In this document: one piece after another, positions 10,731 to 51,031 of the stretch | How the letters are laid out: the number at the start of each line of letters is the position of its first letter | Numbering within the stretch: the first letter of the stretch is position 1 | NCBI GenBank assembly: GCA_004321745.1 | Contig: SGYO01000006.1 | Coordinates: 37,468 to 101,467 of the forward strand | From: a bacterium | GTDB taxonomy: Bacteria; Fidelibacterota; Marinisomatia; Marinisomatales; UBA1611 | Length of the DNA stretch: 64,000 bases | Reading direction: 5' to 3' | Notes under the pieces: model-generated | The model's input: the letters and a program-made list of their open reading frames with translations, nothing else | What the model was told of the DNA's origin: nothing | The model's database searches: none | Translations under genes and position numbers: made by a program

Positions 10731-11654
10731 TTAATGTTCCTCTAACCAGCGCTCTGCATCTAAAGCTGACATGCATCCAGTGCCAGCAGCTGTAATGGCT
10801 TGACGGTATACCTGATCTTGGACATCTCCGCATGCAAAAACACCTGGTACGTTTGTATTTGTAGTATCAGGATGTGTGGTAATATACCCCTTATCATCAA
10901 GGTCAATTTGACCCTTAAAAATACCTGTATTAGGAACATGTCCTATTGCCATAAAAATACCATCACAATCGACATCTTTTAATTCTCCGGATACTGTATC
11001 TTTAATTTTAACACCAGTCACTCCGGTTTCTTTTGAACCATAAATGTCTTCAACTGCACTATTCCACATTATATCGATCTTGTCATTAGCGAACACTCTG
11101 TCTGCCATAATCTTTGAAGCTCTAAATTCATCTCTTCTATGAACAATAGTAACTTTTGAAGCAAATTTAGTCAAAAATATTGCCTCCTCAGCTGCAGAAT
11201 CACCTCCCCCAACTACCAAGACCTCTTTTTCTTTAAAAAAGAAACCATCACAAGTTGCACAAGCAGATACTCCATATCCCATAAGTTCTTTTTCAGAATC
11301 TAATCCTAAAAGCTTAGCCGAAGCACCGGTTGAAATAACTATTGTATCTGCAGTGTATTCATCATTATTTACCCAAACTCTAAAAGGATTTACTGAAAAA
11401 TCAGTTTTTGTAACAGTCTTATACTCACACGTGGCACCAAACCGTACGGCCTGTTTTCTCATGTGATCCATTAATTCGGGACCCATTATTCCATCAGGAA
11501 ATCCTGGGAAATTTTCAACATCAGTTGTTATTGTAAGCTGACCTCCAGGCTGAGAACCTTCAAAAACAAGAGGTTCTAAATTTGCTCTTGCTGCGTAAAC
11601 TGCTGCTGTTAAACCAGCCGGACCAGAACCAATGATGATGACTTTTCTATGCAT
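10731..11654 (-). CDS. trxB: thioredoxin-disulfide reductase
   Basis: FAD motif GSGPAG, redox-active CATCDG and NADPH motif GGGDSA; 307 aa. Confidence 0.95.
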
Positions 11655-15710: not shown

Positions 15711-17165
15711 CTATTTAATAAATGACATTTTTTTTGTTTGTTTAGTATTTCCTAATTGGAGTACGCATAAATAAAGTCCTGCCGATACTTCCTCCCCAGC
15801 AAAATTGACGCCATCCCAAGTTAGTGAATAATTTCCTGCATTTTGAAATTCATTTACAAGGCTTTTAATGATTTTACCATTCACATCAAAAATGGAAAGG
15901 TTAACCATTCCATTTTGTGCCAAGTCATAACCTATTGATGTGATAGGATTAAATGGGTTTGGATAATTTTGATGTAAGAAAAATTGATCTGGTATTAATT
16001 TTGAGATAGAAGTAGTTAAAAATTCAAACGTATATGGCTCAGAACTTGTTGGGCAACCGTCAACAAAAAAAACCTCGACAGAATAATCACCACTCCCAAT
16101 TGGAGTAAATGTGACATTATTTTCTCCTGCAATAGGACTATTATCCATATACCATTGATATTGTAAACCTATTACTGAGGAACTTAAGACTCCATTATTC
16201 TCAATTATTGTTGATGTTGGATTTTCCTGATGAATCTGATCATATGCTATCCTGTTCGAATTCAATACTGAATCTTGAAAAGCATTATATTGATTACAAC
16301 TATCTTTCAACATATAGTCAAGCCAGAGATTAACAAAATCAAAAGTGATATTTTGTTGATCCTCTCTAGATATTGATATTCCGCTTGAAGCAGTAGTTTC
16401 TCCAAAATCGCAAAAAAAATTGGGCTCACCAAAATAACAATGAGCTCCTCCTAAAATTGAAATAAATGTTTTATAGCCAGAGCTAAGATTATTAAAAATT
16501 GGTAGATGATGAGTCTCAGGTGTTGTTACACCATCTTGACTACCAGACAGAATCAATGCTGGAACATTCACATTTAACGCTGAACTAATTGAGGAAACCC
16601 CATTTGAAGACGATTCAGCAGGTGCTAACCCAATAATTGTCTTTAATTGGACATCTTGATTTTGAGTTAATGAATCTGCTGCCAAAAAAGCTGCTCCACC
16701 GCCCATTGAATGACCCATTAAAGCAGTATTATTTGCAACCGCGTTAAAAACAGGAGAATAGTTATCCGCGCCTTCTCTTTGCATTTCTGTTACTAAAAAT
16801 TGAAGGTCCCAACCAAATTCCTGATGGTCATTAATTAAACCCTCTTCTGTTCTTGGAAAAAGTATTATATACCCTTTAGGTACTAAATCTTCCCATAAGT
16901 TTTGATAATCACCATAGGACATTAAAAAACCATGACCAAAAATGATAATAGGAAATTGACCAAACGCAACTTGAGTATTATTGCCTGCAGAAATGGATGG
17001 ATAATAAATTTCTGTAGGCACATTCCTATTTGACCTCGTAGAATCTTGAAAAACCTTACTATAGTTTCCTATAAAATATTGCGCATTTAATAAGGTTGAC
17101 AATTGTAAAAATAGTATGAATAAAATTGAAGTTATGATATTCAATATAATTTTTAGTATTTCCAT
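15711..17165 (-). CDS. secreted alpha/beta hydrolase of the cutinase/PETase/dienelactone-hydrolase type with a T9SS C-terminal sorting domain
   Basis: The start is moved from the track's 17219 (which overlaps the tRNA) to ATG 17165, which opens the signal peptide MEILKIILNIITSILFILFLQL. The catalytic layout is GHSMGGG (Ser), SGSQDGV (Asp) and LGGAHCYF (His). The C-terminus LHQNYPNPFNP...LYLCVL...KKMSFIK is T9SS-CTD-like. Confidence 0.7.
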   Translation of the reverse strand: MEILKIILNIITSILFILFLQLSTLLNAQYFIGNYSKVFQDSTRSNRNVPTEIYYPSISAGNNTQVAFGQFPIIIFGHGFLMSYGDYQNLWEDLVPKGYIILFPRTEEGLINDHQEFGWDLQFLVTEMQREGADNYSPVFNAVANNTALMGHSMGGGAAFLAADSLTQNQDVQLKTIIGLAPAESSSNGVSSISSALNVNVPALILSGSQDGVTTPETHHLPIFNNLSSGYKTFISILGGAHCYFGEPNFFCDFGETTASSGISISREDQQNITFDFVNLWLDYMLKDSCNQYNAFQDSVLNSNRIAYDQIHQENPTSTIIENNGVLSSSVIGLQYQWYMDNSPIAGENNVTFTPIGSGDYSVEVFFVDGCPTSSEPYTFEFLTTSISKLIPDQFFLHQNYPNPFNPITSIGYDLAQNGMVNLSIFDVNGKIIKSLVNEFQNAGNYSLTWDGVNFAGEEVSAGLYLCVLQLGNTKQTKKMSFIK

Positions 17166-17177
17166 AACTGAAGATTG

Positions 17178-17250
<73 letters not shown>

Positions 17251-17329: not shown

Positions 17330-17569
17330 TCAATTAGATCTTTTTCTAAATTGTGTATTTTTAGATTGAAATTTTTTTCTATCGGATTTTTTAAGCATTT
17401 TTCTTTTTATCAAGTCATTCTCGATGAGAGAAATAATATAATTGTTTATTGAGCGATCACTCTTTGATGCTTTTGTCACAAGCTTCCATAATTTCTCAGG
17501 CATTTTTAAATGCCTTATGTTACTGAATGACATCTTAGTTTCACTATTTTTTTCAATTTTTCTCCTCAT
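17330..17569 (-). CDS. small basic protein, possible ribbon-helix-helix DNA binder
   Basis: 79 aa. The segment IRHLKMPEKLWKLVTKASKSDRSINNYIISLIENDL resembles an RHH beta-alpha-alpha unit. The start overlaps the upstream stop as ATGA. Confidence 0.35.
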   Translation of the reverse strand: MRRKIEKNSETKMSFSNIRHLKMPEKLWKLVTKASKSDRSINNYIISLIENDLIKRKMLKKSDRKKFQSKNTQFRKRSN

Positions 17570-17931
17570 TGATTCAAACCATGATTTAATGATGGGTTTT
17601 TATTGATTAACTGATTTTGAATTATTTCATTGGCCTTTTTTGGGGTCAAATGACGTATTTCCTCAGAAGAGTACTTTAAACCTTTTAACTTTAATCTCAT
17701 ATCTTGAGTGATCATTATTGGTATTGAAATTATTTTTTTTGGTTCGTTACTCTTTGAGAGTTTTGAATTATAGTATGCATTTTCTAATTGTTCTACTGAA
17801 ACTTCATTTTTAAAAATACTACCTACTGCTGATCTATATGCATCCCTGTATGATTTAAAGAGCCCATTTTTTTTATCAATTCTGCATTGCTCTGCGATTT
17901 TTGCTAAGCTTTGATTCTTTTCATTGCTCAT
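17566..17931 (-). CDS. hypothetical protein
   Basis: 121-aa ORF translationally coupled to the downstream small gene. No motif recognised. Confidence 0.4.
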   Translation of the reverse strand: MSNEKNQSLAKIAEQCRIDKKNGLFKSYRDAYRSAVGSIFKNEVSVEQLENAYYNSKLSKSNEPKKIISIPIMITQDMRLKLKGLKYSSEEIRHLTPKKANEIIQNQLINKNPSLNHGLNQ

Positions 17932-17933
17932 TT

Positions 17934-18350
17934 CTACAAACTTACTTCTGGGTGCTGTATTAAGAATGACCTCATTTCACTTTCACCATAATACATACCA
18001 CCAATTAAATTAATAACCGAAGTTGTTATGGATACAGCTGATGTATTTCTTTTATCTATGTGAAATTTTGTTCCATCCATGGCAAAGAGCACATTAGACT
18101 TTTTATTTAAATGTATTTCGGTGTAAAAATAATATCGCAAAATGTATTCACATGTTTTATCAGTACCAGGAAATACAGTTTGCAAGTCTTTGATGGTGTT
18201 AGTTGTCAAAAACAACACTCTACTCTGCCCCTTGTAAGCAGTCGTATTACTTTTTCGTAAAGCTTTCAGAATGCTTTCCTGATTTTGAGCTGTAATAAAT
18301 AATGGAAAAATCATAATCACCAAACACAGGGTTCTAAGAAAATTACCCAT
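17934..18350 (-). CDS. hypothetical exported protein
   Basis: Signal peptide MGNFLRTLCLVIMIFPLFITAQ; 138 aa; 2 nt from the next gene. Confidence 0.4.
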   Translation of the reverse strand: MGNFLRTLCLVIMIFPLFITAQNQESILKALRKSNTTAYKGQSRVLFLTTNTIKDLQTVFPGTDKTCEYILRYYFYTEIHLNKKSNVLFAMDGTKFHIDKRNTSAVSITTSVINLIGGMYYGESEMRSFLIQHPEVSL

Positions 18351-18361
18351 GATGTTAAATG

Positions 18362-18931
18362 CTAAAGAAAATAGTTTTCTCTAAGGCGCTGCCGTATAGT
18401 ATCAATATCATCCGATATTTTATGGAGCTCATACCAAAAATGTCTACTATGATTCTTGACAACAGTATGAGCAAGCTCATGTAAAATGATATAATCCTGT
18501 AGGACCTGAGGTAAATAACAAACGCAAAGATTGATATTTATATTATTTTTGTAGCTACAACTTCCCCAACGAGTTTTCATTTTTTTCACAGAAATTTTCC
18601 CATGTTTAAATCCATATTTTTTAGCTAACACAATTACTCTCCTAGTGATTATATCAGACTCAATTTCTATGTCGTTTAAAGACAACTCGTTGGACTTGTT
18701 GTAAAGAGAGACGGTTTTAGAACTAGAAAATCTTTTGATCTGTTTTTTTATCCATGCTGACTTTATTTCTGCAAATTTTTGCGCTTTAGAAAAAGTTACA
18801 TTTTTAGGTACAGCTACCCGAATATATGATGGTGGTCTAAAAGAAATACGAATATTTTTTGCAATGCTACTTTTTTCAAACAATATTTCACCCACACCCT
18901 CTAATTTCACAATTTTTGAATTAGTGGTCAT
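18362..18931 (-). CDS. YgjP/DUF45-family (M48-like) zinc metallohydrolase
   Basis: HEXXH motif in the typical context (YIILHELAHTVVKNHSRHFW). The N-terminal region IRISFRPPSYIRVAVPKNV is as in YgjP proteins. Confidence 0.75.
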   Translation of the reverse strand: MTTNSKIVKLEGVGEILFEKSSIAKNIRISFRPPSYIRVAVPKNVTFSKAQKFAEIKSAWIKKQIKRFSSSKTVSLYNKSNELSLNDIEIESDIITRRVIVLAKKYGFKHGKISVKKMKTRWGSCSYKNNININLCVCYLPQVLQDYIILHELAHTVVKNHSRHFWYELHKISDDIDTIRQRLRENYFL

Positions 18932-19313
18932 GTAGTGAAAGGTCCTCTACTAATTCTTTTCCTTCTTCATTCCATTTTTTAAATAGGGTAAGGTTGCCCT
19001 CTTTATCATATTTCATAATTAACTTTTTCTCACCATTACTATGCCACTCCCGGTATTGGCGATAAATACCAAATTCCCAAACGGTTTCATAACTCATTAA
19101 TCCGTTTTCATCCCAACCAATCCATGCACCATGTTTATTTCCATCGATATCATATTCCTCATGGCTCCATTTACGAATTCCTTTTCCATGTTTTACATGG
19201 TTTGTGATACTCTTAATGTTCCCATTATAATAAATCTCAGTATGTACAATGTTTCTGTTTTCAGAAAAAAGAATTGAGATTGATAATAAAAAATAAAATA
19301 GTAAATGATTCAT
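18921..19313 (-). CDS. MORN-variant (YwqK-like) repeat exported protein
   Basis: Signal peptide plus repeats of the G.W..W..NG type (HGAWIGWDENGLMSY, REWHSNGEKK, KKWNEEGKE). Confidence 0.5.
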   Translation of the reverse strand: MNHLLFYFLLSISILFSENRNIVHTEIYYNGNIKSITNHVKHGKGIRKWSHEEYDIDGNKHGAWIGWDENGLMSYETVWEFGIYRQYREWHSNGEKKLIMKYDKEGNLTLFKKWNEEGKELVEDLSLHDH

Positions 19314-27712: not shown

Positions 27713-28624
27713 ATGAAAATAGCACTATTAGCTCTCATTTTTTCTTTAGTAAGCGCCCAAAAAGATTATGACATAAAAAATCTGGTAATTTTTGAAGATA
27801 AGTTTCTAATCAAATTTTCAGATGAAATAGTTAATGGAGATGTTTATACAAATCACACAGGAATTCTGGTAAAAAATGGAAACATAGTAAGAGGCGTAAA
27901 AGATGGAAAATGGACAGAATGGTATGATAAAGGAACTAAAAAATTAGAATTTACTTTTTTAGGCGGCTTTTTAGTTGGTCCCGTTAAAATGTGGAACGAA
28001 GCTGGCAAATTAATTTTAAGCGGTAATTATATAAAAGGAAATGGAACAACAATAGTGCAAAATATTGATCCAAACTCCTTTCCAACAAATGGGAGAGATG
28101 GTATATGGAATTTTTATTACGAGAATGGGACTACTAAGCTAGACGAAGAATGGATAGATGGAATTCTCGTTTCAGAAAAAGAATACTATAAAGATTCAAA
28201 GAATATCAAATATGAAGCTTATTATGGTGTAAAAAACCCCGACCCTGATAAAAAGGTACTCCTAGATTATATTGGTTCGATTGATGTCCCTGTGAGCAGT
28301 TATGCCGGTTTGAAAACATACTATTACAAGAGCGGTGAAATTTATTCAATTCAACAATGGGATTGGGTTCAAAAAAGACCTTACGGCAAAAGTTCTTTTT
28401 TCCATGAAACCGGAGAAATTTGGATGAAAGTGCAGTATGATGACAAAGGCAAAAAGCATGGCTATCTTGAGCATTACTTTTTAGGAAAGCTGTATAAGAG
28501 ATATTTTTATAATAAAGATCACATTGTACATATAGAGACATACAATTTAAAGGGTGAAATAGATTACAAAACTGATTGCATGCTCAAGTATTGTAAAGAG
28601 CCAACGCTCGCTACTATTGACTAA
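27713..28624 (+). CDS. MORN-variant (YwqK-like) repeat exported protein
   Basis: Signal peptide plus repeated motifs DGKWTEWYDKGTKK, MWNEAGKL, DGIWNFYYENGTTK and FFHETGEIW. Confidence 0.55.
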   Translation: MKIALLALIFSLVSAQKDYDIKNLVIFEDKFLIKFSDEIVNGDVYTNHTGILVKNGNIVRGVKDGKWTEWYDKGTKKLEFTFLGGFLVGPVKMWNEAGKLILSGNYIKGNGTTIVQNIDPNSFPTNGRDGIWNFYYENGTTKLDEEWIDGILVSEKEYYKDSKNIKYEAYYGVKNPDPDKKVLLDYIGSIDVPVSSYAGLKTYYYKSGEIYSIQQWDWVQKRPYGKSSFFHETGEIWMKVQYDDKGKKHGYLEHYFLGKLYKRYFYNKDHIVHIETYNLKGEIDYKTDCMLKYCKEPTLATID

Positions 28625-30768: not shown

Positions 30769-32739
30769 TTACTGGTTCCAGTAAAGCTTTCTTTTAAGTT
30801 TATTTGATAAACTTTGCACTTCGGTATGTCTAAGCTTTACACCAAGTAATGCTTTCGAGTCTTTTACAAATTCATGAAAAGGTATGCGCAGAACTGCGGT
30901 TTCTCCAGAAGTAAGCGATTTTTCACCATCTGGTGTTACTATAATGATCATACCAGTATGTGATTTTAGTTTTTCAATTGCCTCTTTGGGTTCTTGTTCA
31001 TGGTAACCAAGCCTGGTTTCAATAATTTTATCCCAGAAATAAAATTCAGGTACAGTGTCTTTTACTTGTTTCCTGCAAGAAAATTGATTTTCTTTTGTGA
31101 CTCTTTTTGGGTTTTTTAGTTCAGTAAAATTATATTTTTTTAATAGAGCATGAAAAAAGCTATGAAACGCATTCTGCATACTCTCTCTTGTTTTAAACTG
31201 ATTTGTAAAAGCCTTAAGGTCAACTCCCACTTTCAACAAACCTGCAGTCCAGTAGCCGTATTTTGCGCAAATTGCATGATACAACCCTTTTTCATGTGTA
31301 GATGCATATTTCCCTAAAAGCCTATTTTCACCTGTATTTAACGACTCCTCTACCAACCTTCTAACATTTTCATATATTACTTCAATTTTCCATGGGTCAT
31401 CAAGCTCATCATGATATAACGAATCCAGGTCCTTAACCGGTAAACCCAAATTTTCCATAAAATCTATGTAGCTGCCTTTCCCAAGCTCTGTCATTTGACC
31501 AAGTACTACAGTTTCGTTTTCATCACTTTCTAGATACTTCCTGGTGATTCGCTGACCATTTGAATATCGCCTAAAAACGCCTTGCAACATATGATCAAAT
31601 GTAGAGGCGTCTTGGAGATCATCATCTGTGTAAATATCACGAAAAACTCTTTCGATATTTTTCTGGTAATACTCATGAGGAGCAATTGGTTCTTTATCCC
31701 TGTAGTAGTATGCCTCAATTAAGCTACCTAAAAGAAAGTCATCGTCGTGCATGAACTCTCTAAATTTTGAATCACCCCATGTAGTCCGAAGACCGCGGTA
31801 AAAATATGAAATATAATCATACTTCGGCTTGGTTAACTGTTCCTGCTTAAACTCAAATTTTTGTTCAATAAGGTAATCTAAAAACATTAAAACAAAACGT
31901 TTTCTATTTGCGGCAGCAATTTTTTGTTTGATCTCACTATAGTCAAACCCAGCAGACTCAACTGCAGCACGCCAGCAAACTTCATGAGATTCCATATCCT
32001 TGGTACCAAACATTCTAACACCTTCTTGCATTATGGAGACCAAAGCGATTCTTAATTCAGGTGTTTTTTCCGCCTCAGATAGGGGAAAATCGGTTCCAGG
32101 ATAACGAATGAAATCTGGTATACGGATGAATTTACGGTCATCTCTATCTTTAGGATTCATATACTCAGATGCCAAAACACGATCACCAAACGTATTTGCG
32201 ACTATTTTAAGCGTCTCGCACCAATTTTTCTTCTCTTCCTCTTCACTTTTACCATAAACAACAGGTAAATGACAGTTTGGATTTATTCCAGCATGGGCAT
32301 AAGCACCTTGCACCGTAATGAACAGCTTATTTTTTCCAAGATTTTGTAGTTGGGCAAGTAATGGTTTATTAAACTGATTAAAAAAACCTCTAACTGATAG
32401 ATCAAATGTTTTTTTATTTTGATGTCTTTTGGCCCATTTATCATGCGCACTTCTAAGTTCATGAATCATGCGCTGCTTCGACCAACGGTCATACATTGCC
32501 TGCAAATAATCTGTCGGATTAGCTCTGTAACGTTTTATTGTATACCGAATTTGTTTCTCCGTCAGGTTTGGAATAATGTATGAAATCTCCTGAACAGTTT
32601 TTTTCTTCCAAATACTTAAAACAATTGCGAGCGCTTTTTGTTGCACATCCTCTAGCTCATGAGCCATAAGCTTTTCAAGAAGAGAGACCTGCTTTTCTGT
32701 GGGCGCTTTAATAGCTTGTTCTACTTTTTTTTCTGCCAT
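30769..32739 (-). CDS. uncharacterised 656-aa protein: N-terminal HTH-like segment, four helical repeats, C-terminal PD-(D/E)xK-like module
   Basis: Long ORF without internal stops. HTH-like TVQEISYIIPNLTEKQIRYTIKRY. A repeated motif ending in an aromatic residue, then x, then (A/N)xG and a hydrophobic residue occurs four times. The C-terminus reads ...TVPEFYFWDKIIETRLGYH. The coding call is solid; the function is speculative. Confidence 0.5.
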   Translation of the reverse strand: MAEKKVEQAIKAPTEKQVSLLEKLMAHELEDVQQKALAIVLSIWKKKTVQEISYIIPNLTEKQIRYTIKRYRANPTDYLQAMYDRWSKQRMIHELRSAHDKWAKRHQNKKTFDLSVRGFFNQFNKPLLAQLQNLGKNKLFITVQGAYAHAGINPNCHLPVVYGKSEEEEKKNWCETLKIVANTFGDRVLASEYMNPKDRDDRKFIRIPDFIRYPGTDFPLSEAEKTPELRIALVSIMQEGVRMFGTKDMESHEVCWRAAVESAGFDYSEIKQKIAAANRKRFVLMFLDYLIEQKFEFKQEQLTKPKYDYISYFYRGLRTTWGDSKFREFMHDDDFLLGSLIEAYYYRDKEPIAPHEYYQKNIERVFRDIYTDDDLQDASTFDHMLQGVFRRYSNGQRITRKYLESDENETVVLGQMTELGKGSYIDFMENLGLPVKDLDSLYHDELDDPWKIEVIYENVRRLVEESLNTGENRLLGKYASTHEKGLYHAICAKYGYWTAGLLKVGVDLKAFTNQFKTRESMQNAFHSFFHALLKKYNFTELKNPKRVTKENQFSCRKQVKDTVPEFYFWDKIIETRLGYHEQEPKEAIEKLKSHTGMIIIVTPDGEKSLTSGETAVLRIPFHEFVKDSKALLGVKLRHTEVQSLSNKLKRKLYWNQ

Positions 32740-35758: not shown

Positions 35759-37585
35759 ATGGGTTTAATGACCACGTTAAGAACAAGAATGACAGTAGTT
35801 TTATGGGCTTTGCTAATCCTGTTTCTATTGAGCATGGCCGTCGGAGGTTTAGTTGGCGGTGCAAATATAATTGATCAAATTGCTGGAAGGGTTGACCCTT
35901 CAAGAGTGATTGCACGAATTAATGACCAAGATATCTCTCCTGACTATTTTAATAATCTAGTTAATCAACAAATAAACCAGTTTAAATCGTCTGGTCAGCC
36001 CGTTAACGATGCAATGTATGAAAGAGCAAGAAGTACAGCCTGGACAAATTTAGTTCAAGAGGTACTTGTAAGCGCTGAGATCAAAAGGTTAGGTTTAGAG
36101 GCTACTGATGAAGAAATTATATACCATTTAAGAGAAAATCCACCTCAGTTTTTACAATCTAATCCTACTTTCCAAACTGATGGAAAATTTGATTCTCAAA
36201 AATATTTATCAGCCTTAGCCTCCCCGCAAGGAGATGAATGGGTACCAATAGAAAACTGGATGAGAACAAGCTACATTCCAAATTTAAAACTCACACAGTT
36301 TTTAAATGAAGATGTGCTCGTAACTGAGCAAGATGTAAAAGATGATTTTATAAAAAAGAATGTCAAATTTACAGTCGATGCTATTCATGTTACTTATGAC
36401 AAAGTCCCAGCAGATAAAACAGAGCCATCTGAAACTGAACTTACAGATGAATATCAAGCCTCACTCGATGATTTTAAGCATGATGAGCTTCGTAATATTA
36501 GTTTTGTTTCTTGGAAAAAATCCCCATCTGCTCAAGATAGCATAAAAAATGGATATTTAATTTCAGATATTATGGAAAGAGCAAATTCTGGAGAAAATTT
36601 TGCTGATTTAGCAAATGAATACACGCAAGATCTTTCAGGGCAAGATAAAGGAGGCGATTTAGGATGGTTTGGTAAGGGTCAAATGGTAAAACCTTTTGAA
36701 GAGGCAGCCTTCAACGCTAAAAAAGGATCTATAATTGGTCCGATTAAATCACGATTTGGTAGTCATATAATTAATGTGCGTGACAAAAGATCAGAAGATG
36801 GCAAGGAGCAAGTGTTAGCCTCTCATATACTTCTTAAGGTTGAAGCTAGTCCGACTACTTTGTCTGACCTTAGAAGGACTGCAACACTTTTTAGCTATGA
36901 TGCCCAAGATTCTGGGTTTACTTTTGCTGCAAATAGTAATCAACTTGCAATTTTAAACCATGAAAATCTAGATGCATCTGCCTCTAGACTTAGAACAATT
37001 GGGTCGTTACGTAGTGGGGTGAAATTTGCATTTAACAATAAAGTTGAATCAGTGTCCGATGTATTGGAAAATGATCAGTATTTTGCTGTTTTACATGTTG
37101 ATAGTTCAATAGAAGCTGGTTATAAATCTTTTGAGAGTGTTAGACCACAGCTCGTAAATAAAGTTAAAAGATCCAAACAGAAAACAGCCTCGAGAGATTT
37201 AATTGATGAACTGGTTATAGATTTAAATGCTAATGAAAAATCTCTTAGCTCAATTATAGAAAAGCAGAAGAGATTTGATAATATTAAAGACGAATCCAAA
37301 ACAATAAATGAAGCATTTACTTCCATTGGTAGAAGTAACTTTGTTACTGGTGCTCTTCTGAATGCTTCCAAGGATGACCTACTTGGCCCTGTAGAAACAA
37401 ACAGAGGTTGGGCTTTAATTCATGTGAAAGATATAGCAGAATTAGACTCTTCAGAATATGAAGTTCAGAGAGAATCATTAAAAAACAGCTTAAGAACTAG
37501 AAAACAAAATCAACATCTTCAAGCATGGCTAGATGAATTAAAAGATAATGCTGAGATTATTGATAATAGAAATTTCTTTTATTAA
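35759..37585 (+). CDS. ppiD: membrane-anchored periplasmic chaperone/parvulin PPIase, PpiD-like
   Basis: N-terminal transmembrane helix, a SurA-N-like region and the parvulin core GGDLGWFGKGQMVKPFEEAAF...RFGSHIINV; 608 aa. Confidence 0.8.
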   Translation: MGLMTTLRTRMTVVLWALLILFLLSMAVGGLVGGANIIDQIAGRVDPSRVIARINDQDISPDYFNNLVNQQINQFKSSGQPVNDAMYERARSTAWTNLVQEVLVSAEIKRLGLEATDEEIIYHLRENPPQFLQSNPTFQTDGKFDSQKYLSALASPQGDEWVPIENWMRTSYIPNLKLTQFLNEDVLVTEQDVKDDFIKKNVKFTVDAIHVTYDKVPADKTEPSETELTDEYQASLDDFKHDELRNISFVSWKKSPSAQDSIKNGYLISDIMERANSGENFADLANEYTQDLSGQDKGGDLGWFGKGQMVKPFEEAAFNAKKGSIIGPIKSRFGSHIINVRDKRSEDGKEQVLASHILLKVEASPTTLSDLRRTATLFSYDAQDSGFTFAANSNQLAILNHENLDASASRLRTIGSLRSGVKFAFNNKVESVSDVLENDQYFAVLHVDSSIEAGYKSFESVRPQLVNKVKRSKQKTASRDLIDELVIDLNANEKSLSSIIEKQKRFDNIKDESKTINEAFTSIGRSNFVTGALLNASKDDLLGPVETNRGWALIHVKDIAELDSSEYEVQRESLKNSLRTRKQNQHLQAWLDELKDNAEIIDNRNFFY

Positions 37586-38733
37586 AGCGCCTTAGTTGCT
37601 AAAAACTTAGCTTTTTGGTCTTGATAATGTTTGTATTCTGGATTTCCTTGTATGCACTCATTTATAACTTTAATAGCCTCTTCTACTCTTCCTAATTTCC
37701 ATAGCACTTCTGCCTTAGTATCTAGAATCTTGAGGTCTTCCTTTATTTCAAGAGCATAATTTACTTTTTCTAAAGCTTCAGGCAAAAGCTGGCCTATTTC
37801 TGTCATACGCCAAGCAAAGCTATTCAAAAGGCTTGCAAGATGCTTATAATTTTCATCATATAGACTTACAGCTTTAAGGTAAAGCTGAGCCTCAAGAGAT
37901 GGGTCATTATCATTTTTCTTTAAAGTTCTTATCATTTGCCAATAACATTGTTTTTTTCTCGTTGTATCATTAGTGATATCAGCGTATGCCATTAGGTCAT
38001 CAATAGTATTATTTTTTTTAGCTTTATATAGAAGCCCATAAAAATAAGCTGATTCAGATGAATCTACACCTTGTTCAACAATTTGATCAAGAATATCAAT
38101 TGAAATATCGAGTTCGCCTATTCTATAATAAAGTTGACTAAGGTTATAAAAATTTTGGAATGTAAATGCATTATTAACTCTATGATAACTCTGAATATCG
38201 TCTAAATACTTCTTTGCTGAATCTTTAACATTCAGATCTATGTATTTTTTAGCTAAATCTATTTGAATTGTTATATCATCAGAATTTTTTGAATACTTAA
38301 GCTGAAGATCAGATAATGTATTCGTGCCATTTTTTATACGATTAAGCTCTTTTAAAAAATCCTCTGGCGGCAGATAGCCCACTATTCGATCTAGTTCATT
38401 TCCAGAATTATCAAGGATGATTATTGTTGGATAACCTCGCACACGATATTTTTCTTTTTGCTTAGGACCAGAACCTTTTTCTGCGTCTATCTTCAAAGAA
38501 ATCAAATGATCATTAGCAAAATCAATTATTTTTTCATCTGAGAAAGTATCGTTGTCCAAACGATCACACCATGTTCACCAATCAGTTTCAAAATCTAACA
38601 AAACCATTTTTTCAGAATTCTCATTAAGAACAACATCTAAATCATCATCACTCCAGGGATAAGATTCTTCTTGTCCACAACCTGAAAAAAATAATAAAAG
38701 AAATATTAAAACTATTGATTGAGTTTTTATCAT
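37582..38733 (-). CDS. thioredoxin-fold (Thioredoxin_7-like) + TPR lipoprotein with in-frame TGA at the redox motif: candidate selenoprotein (UxxC)
   Basis: The track starts the gene at TTG 38559. The same frame is open upstream except for one TGA (38577..38575) and reaches ATG 38733. The translation is MIKTQSIVLIFLLLFFSGC (lipobox) GQEESYPWSDDDLDVVLNENSEKMVLLDFETDW-[TGA]-TWCDRLDNDTFSDEKIIDFANDH...RVRGYPTIIILD. The TGA sits at the first Cys position of the WCxxC motif. The C-terminal ~250 aa are TPR-like. Confidence 0.65.
38546..38566 (-). promoter_or_regulatory. candidate bacterial SECIS hairpin downstream of the in-frame UGA
   Basis: The mRNA reads UGA ACAUGGUGUG AUCGUU UGGAC AACGAU AC. 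It forms a perfect 6-bp stem (38564..38559 with 38553..38548). The 5-nt apical loop UGGAC contains GG and starts 16 nt after the UGA. Two further pairs are possible if one G is bulged. Confidence 0.4.
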
Positions 38734-44806: not shown

Positions 44807-46159
44807 TTACAACCTAGTAAGCCATTTTATATGAACTTTGGCTTCATTAATTGTCGCTGTATAAGGTATCGCATACTCAATATTTATCAAAGCATTATTG
44901 GTTATTTTTTTAAGTCCAAAGCCATAACTTAGTTTTGGTTTATAATTCTTGGAAAATCCACTTTCAAGAAAAATTAATGAACTAATTGATTTTATACCAT
45001 TATAATGAAATTCAAATGTTGGTATTACAACATATGGAGATCTAAAAAGATTATCATCATATCCTCTTAAACTATTAACTCCGCCAAAAAGAACTTCTCT
45101 AGCTTTTCCAACATTATTTTCAAATGCATTAATGTACTCACCATAAAAATTAAAACATAAATTTACATTTTTTATTATTGGAGAATACTTTTTAAAGGCT
45201 TGTCTGTATCTAATGTATAAATTTTTAAATTCACTATCTTCTCCAATTTCTAATTCAAAGTTAGTCTGTGAACCCTTAACAGGCATAATCATATCATCTA
45301 GACTATTGTTTTTAAACATAAAAGCAAGCGCTTTATAATTCGATGATATAAAACCTCTTTCAAGTCCATTAACTGTGGTATTTATTGACCCTTGAGAATA
45401 TCCAGCATAAAATGAACCATAAAATGAATTTAACAACTCTACTTTAAGTTCATATTTTTTTTGAACGTAATCATTATTCACCAATTCATAATTAGAATTT
45501 AATATCAACCCTACCCCTCCTCTGAGAAAATGAGGTCGATGTAATTCAAAATTAAATTTTTGATTTATTGAATCAATCGCTATCCATTTGAAAATTAATT
45601 TTTCCATCGCGCCCCACACATTCTCAAAATGAGCATCAATTTCTCCATTATATTCCCAACGATCTTTTTGCGCCTTGGTTCCTCCAAAAAGTCCTGAAAA
45701 ATAATTATTAAATTTAGAATTTATGTCAACATGTAAGCCCAGCTTTTCTCTTTGATATTTAAAAACATTTATATCAGGGTTACTACGAATGAAATAATAT
45801 TTATTTATTATCGTTTTTTTCTTTTTTTCAATGGTTTTATTAGATCTTCTATCAATTTTAATGCCAGAAAAATTTTTAGCTACGTGCTTCAAATAGGATT
45901 GTTTAATTTTTTCATTAGAATTAATAATTACAGTATCAACATCATACGAGGCATACAAAGGTTGATAAGTAATTTCTTTAAATTCATTATTGTAATGCAA
46001 TATTTCATACTGCAAAGCCATTAAATTTTTATCAGAAAGTAATGAGTCTAAGGTCTGTTTAATAAGCACGCTATCAGGAAATTTAAATCTAATTTTTTCA
46101 GTTGAGTAAACAAACTGAACAATAAATAAAGTCCATAACAATGATTTACAAGTACGCAC
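44807..46159 (-). CDS. Omp85-family outer-membrane beta-barrel protein (short, at most one POTRA)
   Basis: Signal peptide. An L6-loop-like motif FGGVNSLRGYDD and a C-terminal YGFGLKK...INIEYAIP block are as in BamA/TamA/TpsB barrels. Confidence 0.65.
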   Translation of the reverse strand: MRTCKSLLWTLFIVQFVYSTEKIRFKFPDSVLIKQTLDSLLSDKNLMALQYEILHYNNEFKEITYQPLYASYDVDTVIINSNEKIKQSYLKHVAKNFSGIKIDRRSNKTIEKKKKTIINKYYFIRSNPDINVFKYQREKLGLHVDINSKFNNYFSGLFGGTKAQKDRWEYNGEIDAHFENVWGAMEKLIFKWIAIDSINQKFNFELHRPHFLRGGVGLILNSNYELVNNDYVQKKYELKVELLNSFYGSFYAGYSQGSINTTVNGLERGFISSNYKALAFMFKNNSLDDMIMPVKGSQTNFELEIGEDSEFKNLYIRYRQAFKKYSPIIKNVNLCFNFYGEYINAFENNVGKAREVLFGGVNSLRGYDDNLFRSPYVVIPTFEFHYNGIKSISSLIFLESGFSKNYKPKLSYGFGLKKITNNALINIEYAIPYTATINEAKVHIKWLTRL

Positions 46160-49100
46160 GGAATTCCCCCATAATTGTAAACAAATTGTTATATCTCAAA
46201 TTATCCAGATAATTAACTGACATTGAAAATGAAATATCTTTTTTTATGAAATAATTTAAAGATGTGTTAACTGCGAAATTTTTTCCAAGAGTTTGCCCAT
46301 TCAATGCTTCAGGAGGAACATATTGAAGGTTTGAAAGTTCTTTGTTTTCACTCAAGTCAAAATTCAACATTACACTACCCAATTCACCAAAAAACAAACG
46401 CCCACTGTAATTAATTCCAATGCCCTGCGCAATAAAACTATTTGACACTACTCTACCATGATCAACTCCATATTTAATTGAAAACTCAGATTCAGATCTT
46501 TTTTCATTTAATGTGAAAGAAATCTCATTCCATGAACCCCTTACTTTTCTTGATCGTTCAATTATAAAATTTGACTCAATATCTTTTATGTTATGATACC
46601 ATTCAAACTTTAAGTTTGAATTTTCTTTTATTTTAACATATCCATTAATACCATTTTTTGAAAAACTTAAGATCTCATTCCCTCTTGGATCATATCCCTG
46701 AAAGTCTTTTGAGTTTGTACTGTAAAATTTTATTCGCTTACTGAAATTTTTTGATCCTAAATCAATTTCAAAAAAATTATTTAAATATGACCTGTATATA
46801 TTTTTTTCTTGTAATTTTGGATCATAGATTTCACTAATACCAATTTTTGAGCCACTGTAATTAAAATTTGTATTAAAATTGATTTTTATTTGCGCGCCTT
46901 TTTTTAATTTGCGCACATCAAAACTAAATCTTTGATGCCCTCTCATATTGCTTAGTAAGGACCTACTACCAGTTGGCACAGAATATGATACATATGAGCC
47001 ATTCTGATCCTTTATATATGTTTTAAGAGATTCATCAAACCTATATTCCCCTAAACCTATTCCAACAGAATCATATACAATTGAAAATGTCTCACTCTGA
47101 GTTTGTTCTGTAGTTGCATTAAAATCAAACTCAAATGGACTACCCCGATCTCTAAAGTTTAGTTTAAGAGACCCTAATAAATAATCTAATTGCTCACTAT
47201 TTGTTTTATTTTTTAATCGTTTAGTTAGAGTAATATTTTTTCTCCACCCATTTAAATTCTTATCTATATACTGAACTGATGAAAGAAAATCCTTACTTTT
47301 CTCGATTTTATCAATTATTGGTTCATTTTTGTATTCATCGTCTCGATTAGTAATACTAAGTGAAATAGTTCTTCTGTTTTTTGTATAATCCAAACCCGTT
47401 TGAACCAATTTATAATTGCTAAACCTTGATCTTTCTTCTCTATTATATTTTAAAAATGGATTGAGGTATTTCAATTGAGCTCTAATTAAAAAACTTGTAA
47501 AAATAGAGTTTTCTTTTTCTGTAAATATCTCACTATATTGAAAATTAGAACCATTAAATAAACCCCTTAAAATTTGATAAGAAGCATCTAGCCTACTTTT
47601 ATTCCAGTCGTATAATTTGAGGTTCGATAGTGTTAGATTTGTAGAACTTAAATTATTCTGATTAATATAGAAATCCATTGAGTTTCTCCGCTCTCCAGAA
47701 TTATTGGCACTATCAATATCCCATATTCTATTAAATTGAACATCCCTATCTAAATTTAGTGAATTATATTTTTTGTCTCTTAAATGCCCCTTATATGAAA
47801 AACCATACTTTGTATCTCTAAACTCTAAAGAATCTACTTTGAGATTAATTTCATATATGCCTCCTGTGCTGGAAATACCATCAGTTGCGATTGTATTCTC
47901 TAATTTTGAAGATCTAGATATTAATGAGTTAGCTGAAATGTTTTTTCCAAGGTTGTATTCTATTTTTGTGAAATATAAATCCTTGACACTAGGAGCAGAG
48001 ATATTCTGGAAAGGACTATAATAATCTTTTAGATTATTTTTCTCTTCACTTTGAACATAACTATAATATATTTCTCCAATGTCTGAGATCAGCTTTTCAT
48101 AATTCCCATTTGAATTATAGGTAAATACAACATTAAACCTAGCAGAATCAGCCTGAATTAATAGGGGGTCAAAAATATAAATGCCATTATCAATAAAATA
48201 TTTTCCTATCGAGTCCTCAATCGCGCCCTCTAATTTGACAGAACTTGAACCTGTTCCTTTCATTTGTTGATAGATTTTACTATCATTAAATAGCCTACTT
48301 TCATTGTCAATTTCTCTATGAATTCCTGCAACGACATTTAATTTATCAGAAATTTTTGTTTCGTATGTATTGCCTAAAATTGATTTTGGATAATTATCAT
48401 CAACATATTCATAGTCCACAGATACATCTGAGTCAAAATGAATTAAATTTTTTGCTGTAAATGTAATTTCCGCTAAAGAATAATCTATTACATAATCAAA
48501 ATTTGCCCCTCTAATTAATTTCCTACCATCCAACCATACATTCTCCGAGCCAGCAATTAGTTGTATGTCTTTACTTTTTGAATTTGAAATCAATCCATAT
48601 GGGCCTTGAACTCCATCAATAACTTCAATATTACTGTTCGCATATTGTCCGCTGGTTGAGGCTAGTAATGCACTCATTTTAGATTTATTAAAATTTAATT
48701 TCCCATTAATTCCAATTACATTACGCTCAATATTTACCAGTTTATCAATATTATTCTTATACTGAATATCACCAGCATTTAAACTAAAATTTGAGCTATT
48801 TAATGAAATATACATTTGATCAAAATCCTCAAGATTACGTGTATTACCCTCAGGTTGTATGACTATGTCTTCATCGCTTAATACTGCACTCAGCATGATA
48901 TCATTTTCAAGTTTTCCACTTAAACTTAAATTTAATCCTCCAGAAAATTCTGATAAGCCGTTTGATGATATGTTTAATTGCCTGTTTATTGAGCCAGAGC
49001 TAAATAGATTATTTTGATTGGATACCTTTTTATAGTCTATTTTTATTTTTTTTTTATTTCTAATAAAGTAATGTTTATCTAAATCATTAAAATTATATCC

Positions 49101-49379
49101 AACAATGAATGGAAGATCTTTAACTAAATATTTATATTTTAAAACGATTGTTACAGTATCTTGAAAAGTATTTTTATAATGTAATAGGCCTTTCATGTAA
49201 TTAATACTATCAGGACTAATTTTGGTACTATACGGCTCAATTTTCAATGATTTGGGGTAAATGAAATTTTCTTTTAAAGAATAAATTTCTTTATTTGAAT
49301 GAATTAAAAGAGTATCAGATGTGAAACCTTTATTCCCAAATAAAAAACTAATCGTAAAAATAAAAAAAATTAAGTGCAA
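46146..49379 (-). CDS. 1077-aa uncharacterised exported/outer-membrane protein, beta-rich
   Basis: N-terminal signal/anchor MHLIFFIFTISFLFG. The composition is N/S/Y/K-rich with alternating strands throughout. It overlaps the Omp85-like gene by 14 nt. No known catalytic motif. Confidence 0.5.
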   Translation of the reverse strand: MHLIFFIFTISFLFGNKGFTSDTLLIHSNKEIYSLKENFIYPKSLKIEPYSTKISPDSINYMKGLLHYKNTFQDTVTIVLKYKYLVKDLPFIVGYNFNDLDKHYFIRNKKKIKIDYKKVSNQNNLFSSGSINRQLNISSNGLSEFSGGLNLSLSGKLENDIMLSAVLSDEDIVIQPEGNTRNLEDFDQMYISLNSSNFSLNAGDIQYKNNIDKLVNIERNVIGINGKLNFNKSKMSALLASTSGQYANSNIEVIDGVQGPYGLISNSKSKDIQLIAGSENVWLDGRKLIRGANFDYVIDYSLAEITFTAKNLIHFDSDVSVDYEYVDDNYPKSILGNTYETKISDKLNVVAGIHREIDNESRLFNDSKIYQQMKGTGSSSVKLEGAIEDSIGKYFIDNGIYIFDPLLIQADSARFNVVFTYNSNGNYEKLISDIGEIYYSYVQSEEKNNLKDYYSPFQNISAPSVKDLYFTKIEYNLGKNISANSLISRSSKLENTIATDGISSTGGIYEINLKVDSLEFRDTKYGFSYKGHLRDKKYNSLNLDRDVQFNRIWDIDSANNSGERRNSMDFYINQNNLSSTNLTLSNLKLYDWNKSRLDASYQILRGLFNGSNFQYSEIFTEKENSIFTSFLIRAQLKYLNPFLKYNREERSRFSNYKLVQTGLDYTKNRRTISLSITNRDDEYKNEPIIDKIEKSKDFLSSVQYIDKNLNGWRKNITLTKRLKNKTNSEQLDYLLGSLKLNFRDRGSPFEFDFNATTEQTQSETFSIVYDSVGIGLGEYRFDESLKTYIKDQNGSYVSYSVPTGSRSLLSNMRGHQRFSFDVRKLKKGAQIKINFNTNFNYSGSKIGISEIYDPKLQEKNIYRSYLNNFFEIDLGSKNFSKRIKFYSTNSKDFQGYDPRGNEILSFSKNGINGYVKIKENSNLKFEWYHNIKDIESNFIIERSRKVRGSWNEISFTLNEKRSESEFSIKYGVDHGRVVSNSFIAQGIGINYSGRLFFGELGSVMLNFDLSENKELSNLQYVPPEALNGQTLGKNFAVNTSLNYFIKKDISFSMSVNYLDNLRYNNLFTIMGEFRAYL

Positions 49380-49380
49380 A

Positions 49381-50226
49381 TTATTTTAATTTTACATTTA
49401 GGATTGATATATGATCTTTTGATAAAATAGCCAAAGATCGATTCATATTTTTTATATCTACTATAGGAGTACTTATAGCAGGTATTTGAAGTATTATAGA
49501 TTTATCAGAGACGGATTCTCCATCACCTTTGTCATTGAAAACAAACCAATGCTCCCTAATCGGTACTAAAAAAATAGGCTTGTTTATTTCAGAGATAAAT
49601 GAGCCTTTATAGGCACCATTTTTTGAAAATAGATACACAATATTATCACAATCTAACAAGCCAAAATCTCCATCTTGATTTATGGCAAGCTTATTAATAC
49701 AATAATCAATATCTGAAAATCTGTTTAAGTCTATATGTGGGACCTTTCTTAAGCGTTTACTTTCAAATTTAAATATACTGTGATATTGTGATGAATATAT
49801 ATAAATCAAACCATATTTATCTATAACAGCTAGTTCAGGAAAAATTCTAGGTTCAAGACTAATTGCAGTCATATAATTCAAACTGTAATCTAGGAGTATA
49901 ATTTTATTTTCTAATCTATCTAATACTGAGATTCCATTTGGCTCTACTCCTACCCATACAGGTTCAGTAAAAGAATATGAATTAAGTCCAAACCCCCCAA
50001 CAGTTTGAAAACCATTCAGACTGCCAATACTAACCAATTGATTTTCTTTTTGATCCAATAATAAAAAGCTACCAGCAACACCCCACTCCAGAAGATCTGG
50101 ATTGACATTTAAATCGCTTAGTTCAGATGGAAAAGGATAATAATCAGAAATAGATAAAGTTACCTGCGAAAATACAATGCAACTATATGCTAAAATTGAT
50201 ATTATATAATTATGAAGTCTTATCAA
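49381..50226 (-). CDS. hypothetical exported protein (possible beta-propeller)
   Basis: Signal peptide. It lies 1 nt upstream of the 1077-aa gene and overlaps lgt by 17 nt. Confidence 0.4.
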   Translation of the reverse strand: MIRLHNYIISILAYSCIVFSQVTLSISDYYPFPSELSDLNVNPDLLEWGVAGSFLLLDQKENQLVSIGSLNGFQTVGGFGLNSYSFTEPVWVGVEPNGISVLDRLENKIILLDYSLNYMTAISLEPRIFPELAVIDKYGLIYIYSSQYHSIFKFESKRLRKVPHIDLNRFSDIDYCINKLAINQDGDFGLLDCDNIVYLFSKNGAYKGSFISEINKPIFLVPIREHWFVFNDKGDGESVSDKSIILQIPAISTPIVDIKNMNRSLAILSKDHISILNVKLK

Positions 50227-51031
50227 TTATGGGTTTTGTTAATGGATACAAAAGAAAATAGCTGCCAATAAATACCATTATTAAACTAATTACCTGTGCA
50301 CCGCTAAAAATATCAAATAAATACTTTTCATTTGTCCTGATAAATTCTACAAAAAACCTTTCAACACCAGCTAAAATCAGATAAACAAAAAATTGACTAC
50401 CGGGTGCTGAATTCTTTGTTCTTCTTTGCCATAAATAGAAAAAACATAGAATCCCTACTATAGATTCATAAAGCTGAGTAGGGTGAACCTTTATGATCTC
50501 AGTATCAATGTTTGATGTGTCTATCCAAGGATAGTACAAAGAAAAGCTAGATATAGTTGTAGGAGGTATGCCGTTTGGGAAAGAGATGGCCCAAGGTAAT
50601 GAACTTGGCAATCCATAATCATCGCCTACAAGAAAACAACCAATCCTGCCAATTGCATATCCGATCATGATCAATGGCGCAATTGTATCTGCAAATAAAT
50701 ACCAAGACAATTTTCTTTTTTTCAAAACTATAGAGACGCATGTTGTACTACCAATCAAACCACCTAAAAAAACTAAGCCTGAACCGCTAAAAATCATGCC
50801 ATAAGGGTCTTGTATCGTCCGATCTAAATTCTCAATTAAATAATATGCTTTAGCTCCTAAGACCCCACCGACAGCTGACCAAAAAATAATATCAGAGGCA
50901 ATCTCAGTATCATACTTAAGCCTTTTCATTTCTAGGTACAATAATCCATAGCATGTATAAAAGGCAGTTACTAACATTAAGCCAAAAGAATATATTTTAA
51001 CTGGTCCAATTTCAAACACAACAGGCAACAT
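50210..51031 (-). CDS. lgt: prolipoprotein diacylglyceryl transferase
   Basis: Polytopic membrane protein with the Lgt signatures GRIGCFL.GDDYG and HPTQLYES. Confidence 0.9.
   Translation of the reverse strand: MLPVVFEIGPVKIYSFGLMLVTAFYTCYGLLYLEMKRLKYDTEIASDIIFWSAVGGVLGAKAYYLIENLDRTIQDPYGMIFSGSGLVFLGGLIGSTTCVSIVLKKRKLSWYLFADTIAPLIMIGYAIGRIGCFLVGDDYGLPSSLPWAISFPNGIPPTTISSFSLYYPWIDTSNIDTEIIKVHPTQLYESIVGILCFFYLWQRRTKNSAPGSQFFVYLILAGVERFFVEFIRTNEKYLFDIFSGAQVISLIMVFIGSYFLLYPLTKPIIDKTS

Follow-up and report, generated by a model that had tools for sequence, protein, structure and literature searches.

A conserved in-frame TGA, probably read as selenocysteine, in a thioredoxin-TPR lipoprotein gene of marine SAR406 bacteria

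Does the TGA codon that interrupts the gene of a thioredoxin-fold lipoprotein in a marine bacterium end the protein, or is it translated? The question is raised by a stretch of 64,000 nucleotides from contig SGYO01000006.1 (positions 37,468 to 101,467; assembly GCA_004321745.1; GTDB lineage Fidelibacterota, Marinisomatia), which is called the window below. On its minus strand lies a gene predicted to encode a lipoprotein with a thioredoxin fold followed by a tetratricopeptide repeat (TPR) domain, and codon 53 of its frame is a TGA. Judging from comparative sequence data, this UGA is very probably read as selenocysteine (Sec). Recoding to selenocysteine had been proposed in an original prediction made from the letters of the window. 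It is supported by the conservation of the TGA, by a pair of Sec and Cys forms, by selection acting upstream of the codon, by the lack of a code reassignment and by a hairpin at the spacing of a selenocysteine insertion sequence (SECIS).

The reading frame and the conservation of its TGA

A single minus-strand frame runs from an ATG at 38733 to a TAA at 37582..37584 and comprises 383 codons and the stop. Its only internal stop is the TGA at 38577..38575, codon 53, in the peptide context DFETDW-TGA-TWCDRLD. Upstream of the TGA the frame is open for 70 codons, for which a chance of about 0.004 was estimated from base composition (GC 32.6%). In the mechanical list of open reading frames (ORFs) the same frame is cut into a 52-amino-acid ORF (38575..38733) and a 325-amino-acid ORF, which starts at the TTG at 38559. 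The start codon, the lipoprotein signal and the sole TGA that had been proposed were found again by reading the frame, as was the division of the gene in the ORF list. Likewise, the placement of the TGA on the first Cys of a CxxC motif was confirmed by its alignment with the first Cys in the structure 2KUC and in the gamma domain of DsbD. The elements of the frame are as follows.

37582..38733, minus strand: full coding sequence of the thioredoxin-TPR lipoprotein, with codon 53 predicted to be a UGA read as Sec; single frame with one TGA, a domain extending across the TGA, and full-length orthologues of 384-414 amino acids
38575..38577, minus strand: predicted selenocysteine codon, residue 53 (the in-frame TGA); invariant in 19 of 19 related loci, with Cys at this column in 99 orthologues
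38566..38577, minus strand: predicted redox motif UxxC (U-T-W-C), which takes the place of the CxxC in thioredoxin folds of the DsbD-gamma type; its aligned counterparts are WCGPC in 2KUC, WCVAC in E. coli DsbD gamma and WCVWC in the orthologues
38557..38559, minus strand: TTG taken as the start by gene callers, corresponding to Leu59 of DRLD and to the top of the hairpin; all Sec-form entries except P0015 start at or after it

The window was scanned for ORFs bridged by a TGA, and this gene alone qualified; three more candidates were dismissed as ordinary TGA stops or as an antisense frame.

Relatives of the gene were gathered from a genome collection, a metagenome collection and an exact protein look-up. 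The TGA is kept in all 19 related loci from metagenomes or metagenome-assembled genomes (MAGs), which were assembled independently and span 65-99% protein identity. It stands in each of the 11 close loci in which the site is covered (86-99% identity), among them Sanger-era Global Ocean Sampling (GOS), TARA and Joint Genome Institute (JGI) contigs and an NCBI MAG, as well as in six divergent loci (65-71% identity) and in the two partial loci L011 and L025. Counted by completeness, the TGA column is invariant in the 14 full-length Sec-form genes (14 of 14), and five further partial loci also have TGA. Synonymous divergence (dS) in the flanks exceeds 1 for the deeper pairs among the 14 full-length genes. 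A single mutation from TGA to TGY would give Cys at full efficiency, and the retention of TGA over such a distance suggests that something other than Cys is wanted at this position.

The 52-55 codons upstream of the TGA show ratios of nonsynonymous to synonymous divergence (dN/dS) of 0.05-0.59, and the mature part after the lipobox mostly shows values of 0.05-0.3. Such low ratios imply that this frame is translated upstream of the TGA. The ratio is below 1 before and after the codon, and no other stops or frameshifts were found. The conservation of the 52 upstream codons, which had been singled out as a point to be checked, is therefore present, with dN/dS well below 1.

TGA serves as an ordinary stop elsewhere in the window, as had been noted for mreC, pxpB and pxpC. 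It terminates 11 of the 56 ordinary ORFs, the ends of which match family profiles, and the genes ending in this way include those for PBP2, MreC, PxpB, PxpC, AccA, NadE, GalE and UvrB.

Putative Sec forms and Cys forms of one family

A test for homologues that span both sides of the TGA had been proposed in the original prediction, and such homologues exist in large number. The 120 top-ranking homologues in the database include 99 full-length ones (368-416 amino acids), which carry Cys at the TGA column within the motif WCVWC. The remaining 21 are of the Sec type: 17 of them start at the TTG, three start elsewhere, and one is the entry P0015, which has a W at the column. These 21 clusters stand for 647 member sequences; 20 clusters are truncated, and P0015 is translated through the TGA as W. 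The two forms are separated by identity to the protein of the window, as all matches of at least 64% are Sec-type and all Cys forms lie at or below 61%.

When the region downstream of the site was put into a neighbour-joining tree, the Sec-type sequences fell into a single clade that contained no Cys form; this points to a single conversion of Cys to Sec. On these sequence comparisons the predicted Sec form is one that arose once from a Cys ancestor, in a surface-ocean lineage of the Marinimicrobia (SAR406).

No variation occurs at C19 (the Cys of the lipobox), C53, W55 and C56 in 34 Cys orthologues. The YPT cis-Pro loop is likewise constant in a 17-sequence alignment including six Sec-form sequences, which indicates that the active site is maintained in the Sec clade. 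Furthermore, both forms are found in a common gene order, consisting of accA, a gene for a YbgC-like thioesterase, the gene described here, a convergent gene for a SurA/PpiD-like isomerase and a gene for uracil-DNA glycosylase, and can on this basis be regarded as orthologues.

The gene and the convergent SurA/PpiD-like isomerase gene (608 amino acids, 35759..37585, plus strand) have their last 4 nt in common (37582..37585). Wherever a Sec-form or Cys-form locus extends far enough, this tail-to-tail arrangement recurs. In some Cys lineages a gene for a GT4 glycosyltransferase lies between the thioesterase gene and the thioredoxin-TPR gene (L029 407-1498, L030 261-1352, L031 387-1463); this insertion was found neither in the window nor in any Sec-form locus.

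The 325-amino-acid ORF of the window is identical to OUV05544.1 (bacterium TMED80) and to RZP24187.1. All four NCBI records that were looked up, OUV05544.1, RZP24187.1, MEL0337213.1 and MEL0173594.1, are truncated to 325 amino acids, in agreement with the expectation that standard annotation shortens the protein and loses its signal peptide and active site. Metagenomes and MAGs seem to be the only source from which the lineage is known, as each of the named records belongs to a MAG or an unclassified bacterium.

The JGI protein P0015 (L022 105-1262, Ga0209603_1080135) reads WWTWC, and the underlying DNA has TGA. Its W is therefore a gene-calling artefact, which could be mistaken for an active-site Trp variant. 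The entry is full length but gives a wrong protein, and the translation of its locus disagrees with the stored sequence.

The downstream hairpin and the rival explanations

The UGA is followed by a short hairpin of 17 nt (AUCGUU/UGGAC/AACGAU, 38564..38548), the first base of which lies 10 nt after the UGA. It can be drawn in two registers.

38546..38567, minus strand: candidate SECIS-like hairpin with a core of 6 bp (38564..38559 with 38553..38548) and the loop UGGAC (38558..38554); the only RNAalifold consensus structure in 90 nt, with pairing kept and a weak energy
Alternative register of the same hairpin, minus strand: A38564 bulged and three lower pairs added (38567..38565 with 38548..38546)

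Every pair cell is paired in the 13 distinct sequences of the Sec clade, and sliding of the partner columns abolishes the pairing. Three sequences show a compensatory change from U-A to C-G, which combines a synonymous change (CGU to CGC) with a replacement of Asn by Ser (AAC to AGC), and one other pair is changed to G-U. The variable positions of the hairpin are confined to the loop (GAC/GAU) or to the compensatory pair. A de novo prediction by RNAalifold over 90 nt returned the hairpin as the sole consensus structure, in the form of five pairs, a bulged A and three more pairs. The codons that form the hairpin are rare here, since CGY accounts for 13.6% of Arg, TTG for 15% of Leu and AAC for 20% of Asn.

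In the model of PMC13188914, a bacterial SECIS element has an apical loop of 3-9 nt with a G among its first two positions, an upper stem of 4-16 bp, a UGA-to-loop distance of 16-37 nt and a minimum free energy (MFE) of -7.5 kcal/mol or lower. The geometry of the hairpin agrees with this model, as it has a 5-nt loop, a 6-bp stem, a G at loop position 2 that is followed by another G, and a spacing of 16 nt, which is the lower limit. Similarly, the minimal SECIS of E. coli fdhF and the bSECISearch consensus share with it the small apical stem-loop near the UGA, the G in the first two loop positions, the possible bulge in the 5′ arm and a distance of 16 nt between the UGA and the start of the loop. 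However, the hairpin described here is much weaker, four of its six pairs are A-U, and its spacing lies at the lower end of the 16-37 nt range; its loop is UGGAY and not of the GGUC type, and it has no match in Rfam.

In the proposed mechanism, the N-terminal, nucleophilic residue of the CxxC centre would be Sec, giving the motif W-U-T-W-C. SelB loaded with Sec-tRNA(Sec) would bind the hairpin, which starts 7-10 nt after the UGA and has the loop UGGAY at 16 nt from the UGA, and would deliver Sec against the competing release factor 2, after which the complete protein would be exported and lipidated.

Several observations weigh against this reading, and the first of them concern the hairpin itself. 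The bare 17-nt hairpin has an energy of only -2.9 kcal/mol, and the values for the window sequence, -2.9 to -5.7 kcal/mol, stay above the -7.5 kcal/mol of the SECIS model. In a context of 46 nt the MFE is -4.8 kcal/mol with z = +1.54, and 193 of 200 shuffled sequences reach an equal or better fold. Across the hairpin, synonymous-site conservation is 0.135, moderately below the gene average of 0.28, and is no outlier among windows of seven codons, so that it gives weak support. In addition, the Cys orthologues hold three to five of the six pairs in register, as counted by eye in four distinct DNA sequences (L028 479, L029 1666, L031 1663, L032 1666). They do so because the peptide D-R-L-D-x-D constrains the bases, and the pairing is thus partly a by-product of coding. 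An Rfam search of 38400..38700 at E values up to 10 gave no SECIS family and only chance matches resembling snoRNAs. The remaining points concern the Sec machinery. Neither selA, selB, selD nor a tRNA-Sec was found in the 64-kb window or in the 10 kb beyond its start, for which NCBIfam or Pfam were applied to 55 of the 56 other ORFs of the window (27713..28624 being excepted). The same genes and tRNA-Sec were also lacking in the related loci, 15 of which were searched with ARAGORN. Finally, SelD was described for three SAR406 single-cell genomes in PMC5029168, where it is called 'orphan', as SelA, SelB and selenoprotein genes were not detectable beside it.

At the gathering thresholds of Rfam, the whole window yielded only tRNA-Ala. 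Thermodynamic stability was dropped as evidence for the hairpin, because shuffled sequence is equally stable or better. Of the 'stable hairpin' at SECIS spacing that had been predicted, the position 10 nt after the UGA and the GG in the loop hold, and the stability does not.

The energies of the relatives are mostly lower. Most other close relatives reach -6.5 to -8.2 kcal/mol (L010 has -4.8), and the divergent ones -10.2 to -13.5 kcal/mol, which lies within the limit of the SECIS model. The pairs kept in the Cys forms suggest that the hairpin seems to have been latent before the change from Cys to Sec, and it is read as a putative minimal SelB-binding element whose precursor was already latent in the coding sequence. 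The search for the Sec machinery covers about 74 kb of genome and is uninformative rather than negative. The SelD of SAR406 is a hint that supports Sec at the level of the phylum and calls for caution at once. Single-cell genomes of SAR406 can be assumed to be incomplete.

One rival is a recoding of the UGA without Sec, in which a near-cognate tRNA (for Cys or Trp) or another SelB-independent route would act in a lineage lacking the Sec machinery. This would fit the absence of that machinery from the approximately 74 kb of DNA examined, the weakness of the hairpin, and the SAR406 single-cell genomes that PMC5029168 reports with SelD only. Nevertheless, such a read-through is improbable. TGA is a stop in this genome, and no conserved, site-specific recoding other than to Sec is known from bacteria in which UGA is otherwise a stop codon. 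Moreover, the site is that of the nucleophilic Cys of a CxxC motif, the classic position of Sec, and the spacing and the G-containing loop of the hairpin fit SelB-type elements. A slim chance is also given to a decoding without the canonical Sec machinery by a new site-specific or SelD-dependent recoding route or, in a milder version, to the gene being the missing selenoprotein behind the orphan SelD, a periplasmic 'seleno-chaperedoxin'.

A split gene is highly improbable. Here a lipopeptide of 52 residues would end at the UGA, and translation would restart at the TTG 15 nt downstream, giving a product of 325 residues without signal peptide or active site. The Sec clade keeps the TTG without exception, whereas CUU or UUA encodes the same Leu in the Cys orthologues, and database entries of the Sec form other than P0015 begin at this codon or after it. 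The invariant TTG is, however, equally explained by the placing of a G in the loop of the hairpin. The 325-residue product would start in the middle of the thioredoxin fold, without strand 1 and the redox motif, and yet the YPT loop and the rest of the domain are invariant. In addition, the five codons from the TGA to the TTG (x-W-C-D-R) are conserved as codons, and the part upstream of the TGA is under purifying selection as a protein.

Finally, a sequencing or assembly error, a recent pseudogene or a reassigned code (TGA as Trp or Gly), for which the W in the JGI translation of one relative could be cited, is already refuted by the identical TGA in 19 loci (65-99% identity), which stem from unrelated sequencing projects and technologies, by the low dN/dS on both sides without further stops or frameshifts, and by the 11 of 56 ORFs that end in TGA at the expected ends of their profiles in a window with no other TGA-bridged ORF. 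The indel, error or pseudogene against which the original prediction had cautioned is thus not what the independently assembled loci contain.

Protein architecture, genomic surroundings and meaning

The N-terminus of the full-length protein (MIKTQSIVLIFLLLFFSGC) fits a lipoprotein signal, and the stretch LIFLLLFFSGC fits the lipobox pattern. The lipobox was tested with a regular expression for the PROSITE pattern PS51257, which matches 13 of the 14 Sec-form genes and 77 of the 100 full-length forms (the 99 Cys forms and P0015). Cys19 is invariant in 35 aligned sequences, and an lgt gene is present in the window at 50210..51031. Three parts of the protein were predicted.

38677..38733, minus strand: signal peptide with lipobox (MIKTQSIVLIFLLLFFSG-C19), Cys19 being the predicted lipidation site; found by the lipobox expression, Cys19 invariant
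38329..38661, minus strand: predicted thioredoxin-fold domain (residues 25-135 approximately) of the DsbD-gamma/Thioredoxin_2 type with the conserved YPT cis-Pro loop; based on Pfam, NCBIfam, PDB sequences, and the AlphaFold (AF2) model of a Cys orthologue with Foldseek
37585..38316, minus strand: predicted all-helical TPR domain (residues 140-383 approximately); based on Pfam TPR_19, TPR_14 and TPR_8, on AF2 helices at 143-382 with a predicted local distance difference test score (pLDDT) of about 90, and on Foldseek matches to TPR superhelices

With U replaced by C, PF13098 (Thioredoxin_2) matches residues 39-130 across the TGA with 57 bits against a cut-off of 27 (E 2.8e-15), and Thioredoxin_7 (PF13899), DsbH (PF03190) and Thioredoxin also lie above their Pfam cut-offs. 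In NCBIfam, no selenoprotein-specific model covers the protein; the best match is the DsbD-like C-terminus of TsoB, followed by DsbD and DsbH, all far below their cut-offs. The selenoprotein TsoB (NF045694) was rejected as a candidate, as it scored 76 bits against a cut-off of 805 and only with the C-terminal, DsbD-like part of the model. The structure was assessed with the AF2 model of the Cys orthologue P0030 (pLDDT 87). In it, a thioredoxin fold covers approximately residues 30-140, and the TPR domain behind it is all helical. In a Foldseek search with this model, E. coli YbbN/CnoX came first overall, and DsbD gamma and 2KUC were the best matches for the first domain.

The closest solved structures to the thioredoxin domain are the gamma domain of E. 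coli DsbD (1UC7, 2FWE) and 2KUC, a putative disulfide isomerase of Bacteroides thetaiotaomicron. The latter is matched with E 3.9e-17, its WCGPC aligning with W-U-T-W-C, and DsbD gamma with an E value of about 2e-8; the Foldseek TM-scores of both are 0.69-0.78 on the target. Both are periplasmic thiol-disulfide oxidoreductases. However, they carry Cys and not Sec, and DsbD gamma is attached to an electron-transfer domain in the membrane, while the protein described here is predicted to be a lipoprotein with a TPR domain.

The chaperedoxin CnoX/YbbN (3QOU, 3QDN) has the same succession of a thioredoxin and a TPR domain, and 3QOU is the top Foldseek match, with 327 columns and E 1.1e-5. By analogy, this likeness suggests that binding of clients by the TPR domain may be coupled to redox chemistry. 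In contrast, the overall TM-score of 0.23-0.30 shows that the arrangement of the domains differs, the thioredoxin domain is closer to DsbD gamma, and a lipoprotein signal is conserved here. There is no CnoX/YbbN model among the NCBIfam matches. CnoX is a cytoplasmic protein, and that of E. coli is not known to have a CxxC motif.

From sequence and model, the predicted protein is an exported periplasmic lipoprotein that combines a chaperedoxin layout with a redox domain of the DsbD-gamma type. We infer a role as a periplasmic selenol/thiol-disulfide oxidoreductase, in which the TPR domain probably holds client or partner proteins. The conserved convergent gene for a SurA/PpiD-like chaperone hints at a link to protein folding in the envelope. 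A search for an electron donor gave neither CcdA nor DsbD in the window. A gene for the thioredoxin-disulfide reductase TrxB (10731..11654, minus strand; 415.6 bits vs. 343) lies 27 kb away, with no evident link to the periplasmic protein described here.

Selenoproteins of a related kind have been predicted before. In PMC13188914, a family named 'thiol:disulfide interchange protein' with PF13098 and UxxC is listed and attributed to reference 12 of that article. It shares with the present protein the best-matching Pfam family, the position of the UxxC and the thioredoxin fold of the DsbD-gamma type. Reference 12 is reportedly the 2004 work of Kryukov and Gladyshev. The prototype of the family is WP_011366075.1, of which the present gene may be an orthologue or an independent conversion of Cys to Sec. 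According to PMC2398784 and PMC13188914, thioredoxin-fold proteins with UxxC are the commonest class of predicted selenoproteins in marine bacteria. Among the predicted selenoproteins of bacteria in general, this class is likewise the largest. The family is found in ocean metagenomes (PMC13188914, PMC2398784), and the relative L013 of the gene described here is a GOS contig (accession AACY02...). In contrast, the fusion to a TPR domain of about 240 residues, the lipoprotein signal and a Marinimicrobia host are not mentioned in the passages available from the two articles. The peptide DFETDW/TWCDRLD was not found in the text of the GOS supplement; GOS reads of this gene may already have been counted in 2008. 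At the level of the family the idea is not new, since UxxC selenoproteins with a thioredoxin fold are well known in ocean metagenomes.

Further features of the window lie outside this locus. Markers of the type IX secretion system (T9SS), SusC-like proteins and GWxTD proteins are present. LepA relatives at 76-80% identity carry the names Candidatus Marinimicrobia or Neomarinimicrobiota, and with these markers they place the window in SAR406/Marinimicrobia. Four large minus-strand ORFs have no NCBIfam match, namely 46146..49379 (1077 amino acids), 44807..46159 (450), 30769..32739 (656) and 6934..8574 (546). The ORFs of 1077, 450 and 656 amino acids also lack a Pfam match, and for the one of 546 amino acids the precomputed record of a relative gives faint PorZ-like or Reg_prop hints. 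A C-terminal sorting domain of the T9SS type is encoded by a 502-amino-acid ORF (15711..17219, minus strand), which probably starts further downstream than listed, because the listed start lies inside the tRNA-Ala(GGC) at 17177..17250 on the same strand. Between this tRNA-Ala and a gene for an esterase resembling polyhydroxybutyrate (PHB) depolymerases, four small minus-strand ORFs (121, 138, 189 and 130 amino acids; 17566..19313) were found, which have no NCBIfam match.

General knowledge of selenoproteins is unchanged by this finding. It corrects a systematic annotation error in at least 21 clusters with 647 sequences of the Sec type, all but one of these clusters being truncated, and in the truncated records an exported redox protein lacks both its signal peptide and its active site. 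The Sec clade is widespread in the surface ocean, as it occurs in many independent marine metagenome assemblies. The tiny hairpin, which is partly dictated by the peptide D-R-L-D-x-D, would be an example of how a Cys codon becomes a Sec codon by few extra mutations. The only record on selenium in SAR406 found in the searchable literature is the 'orphan SelD' of PMC5029168. If true, the conserved Sec codon would give the SelD of SAR406 a purpose, and it would predict that selA, selB and selC are present in these bacteria.

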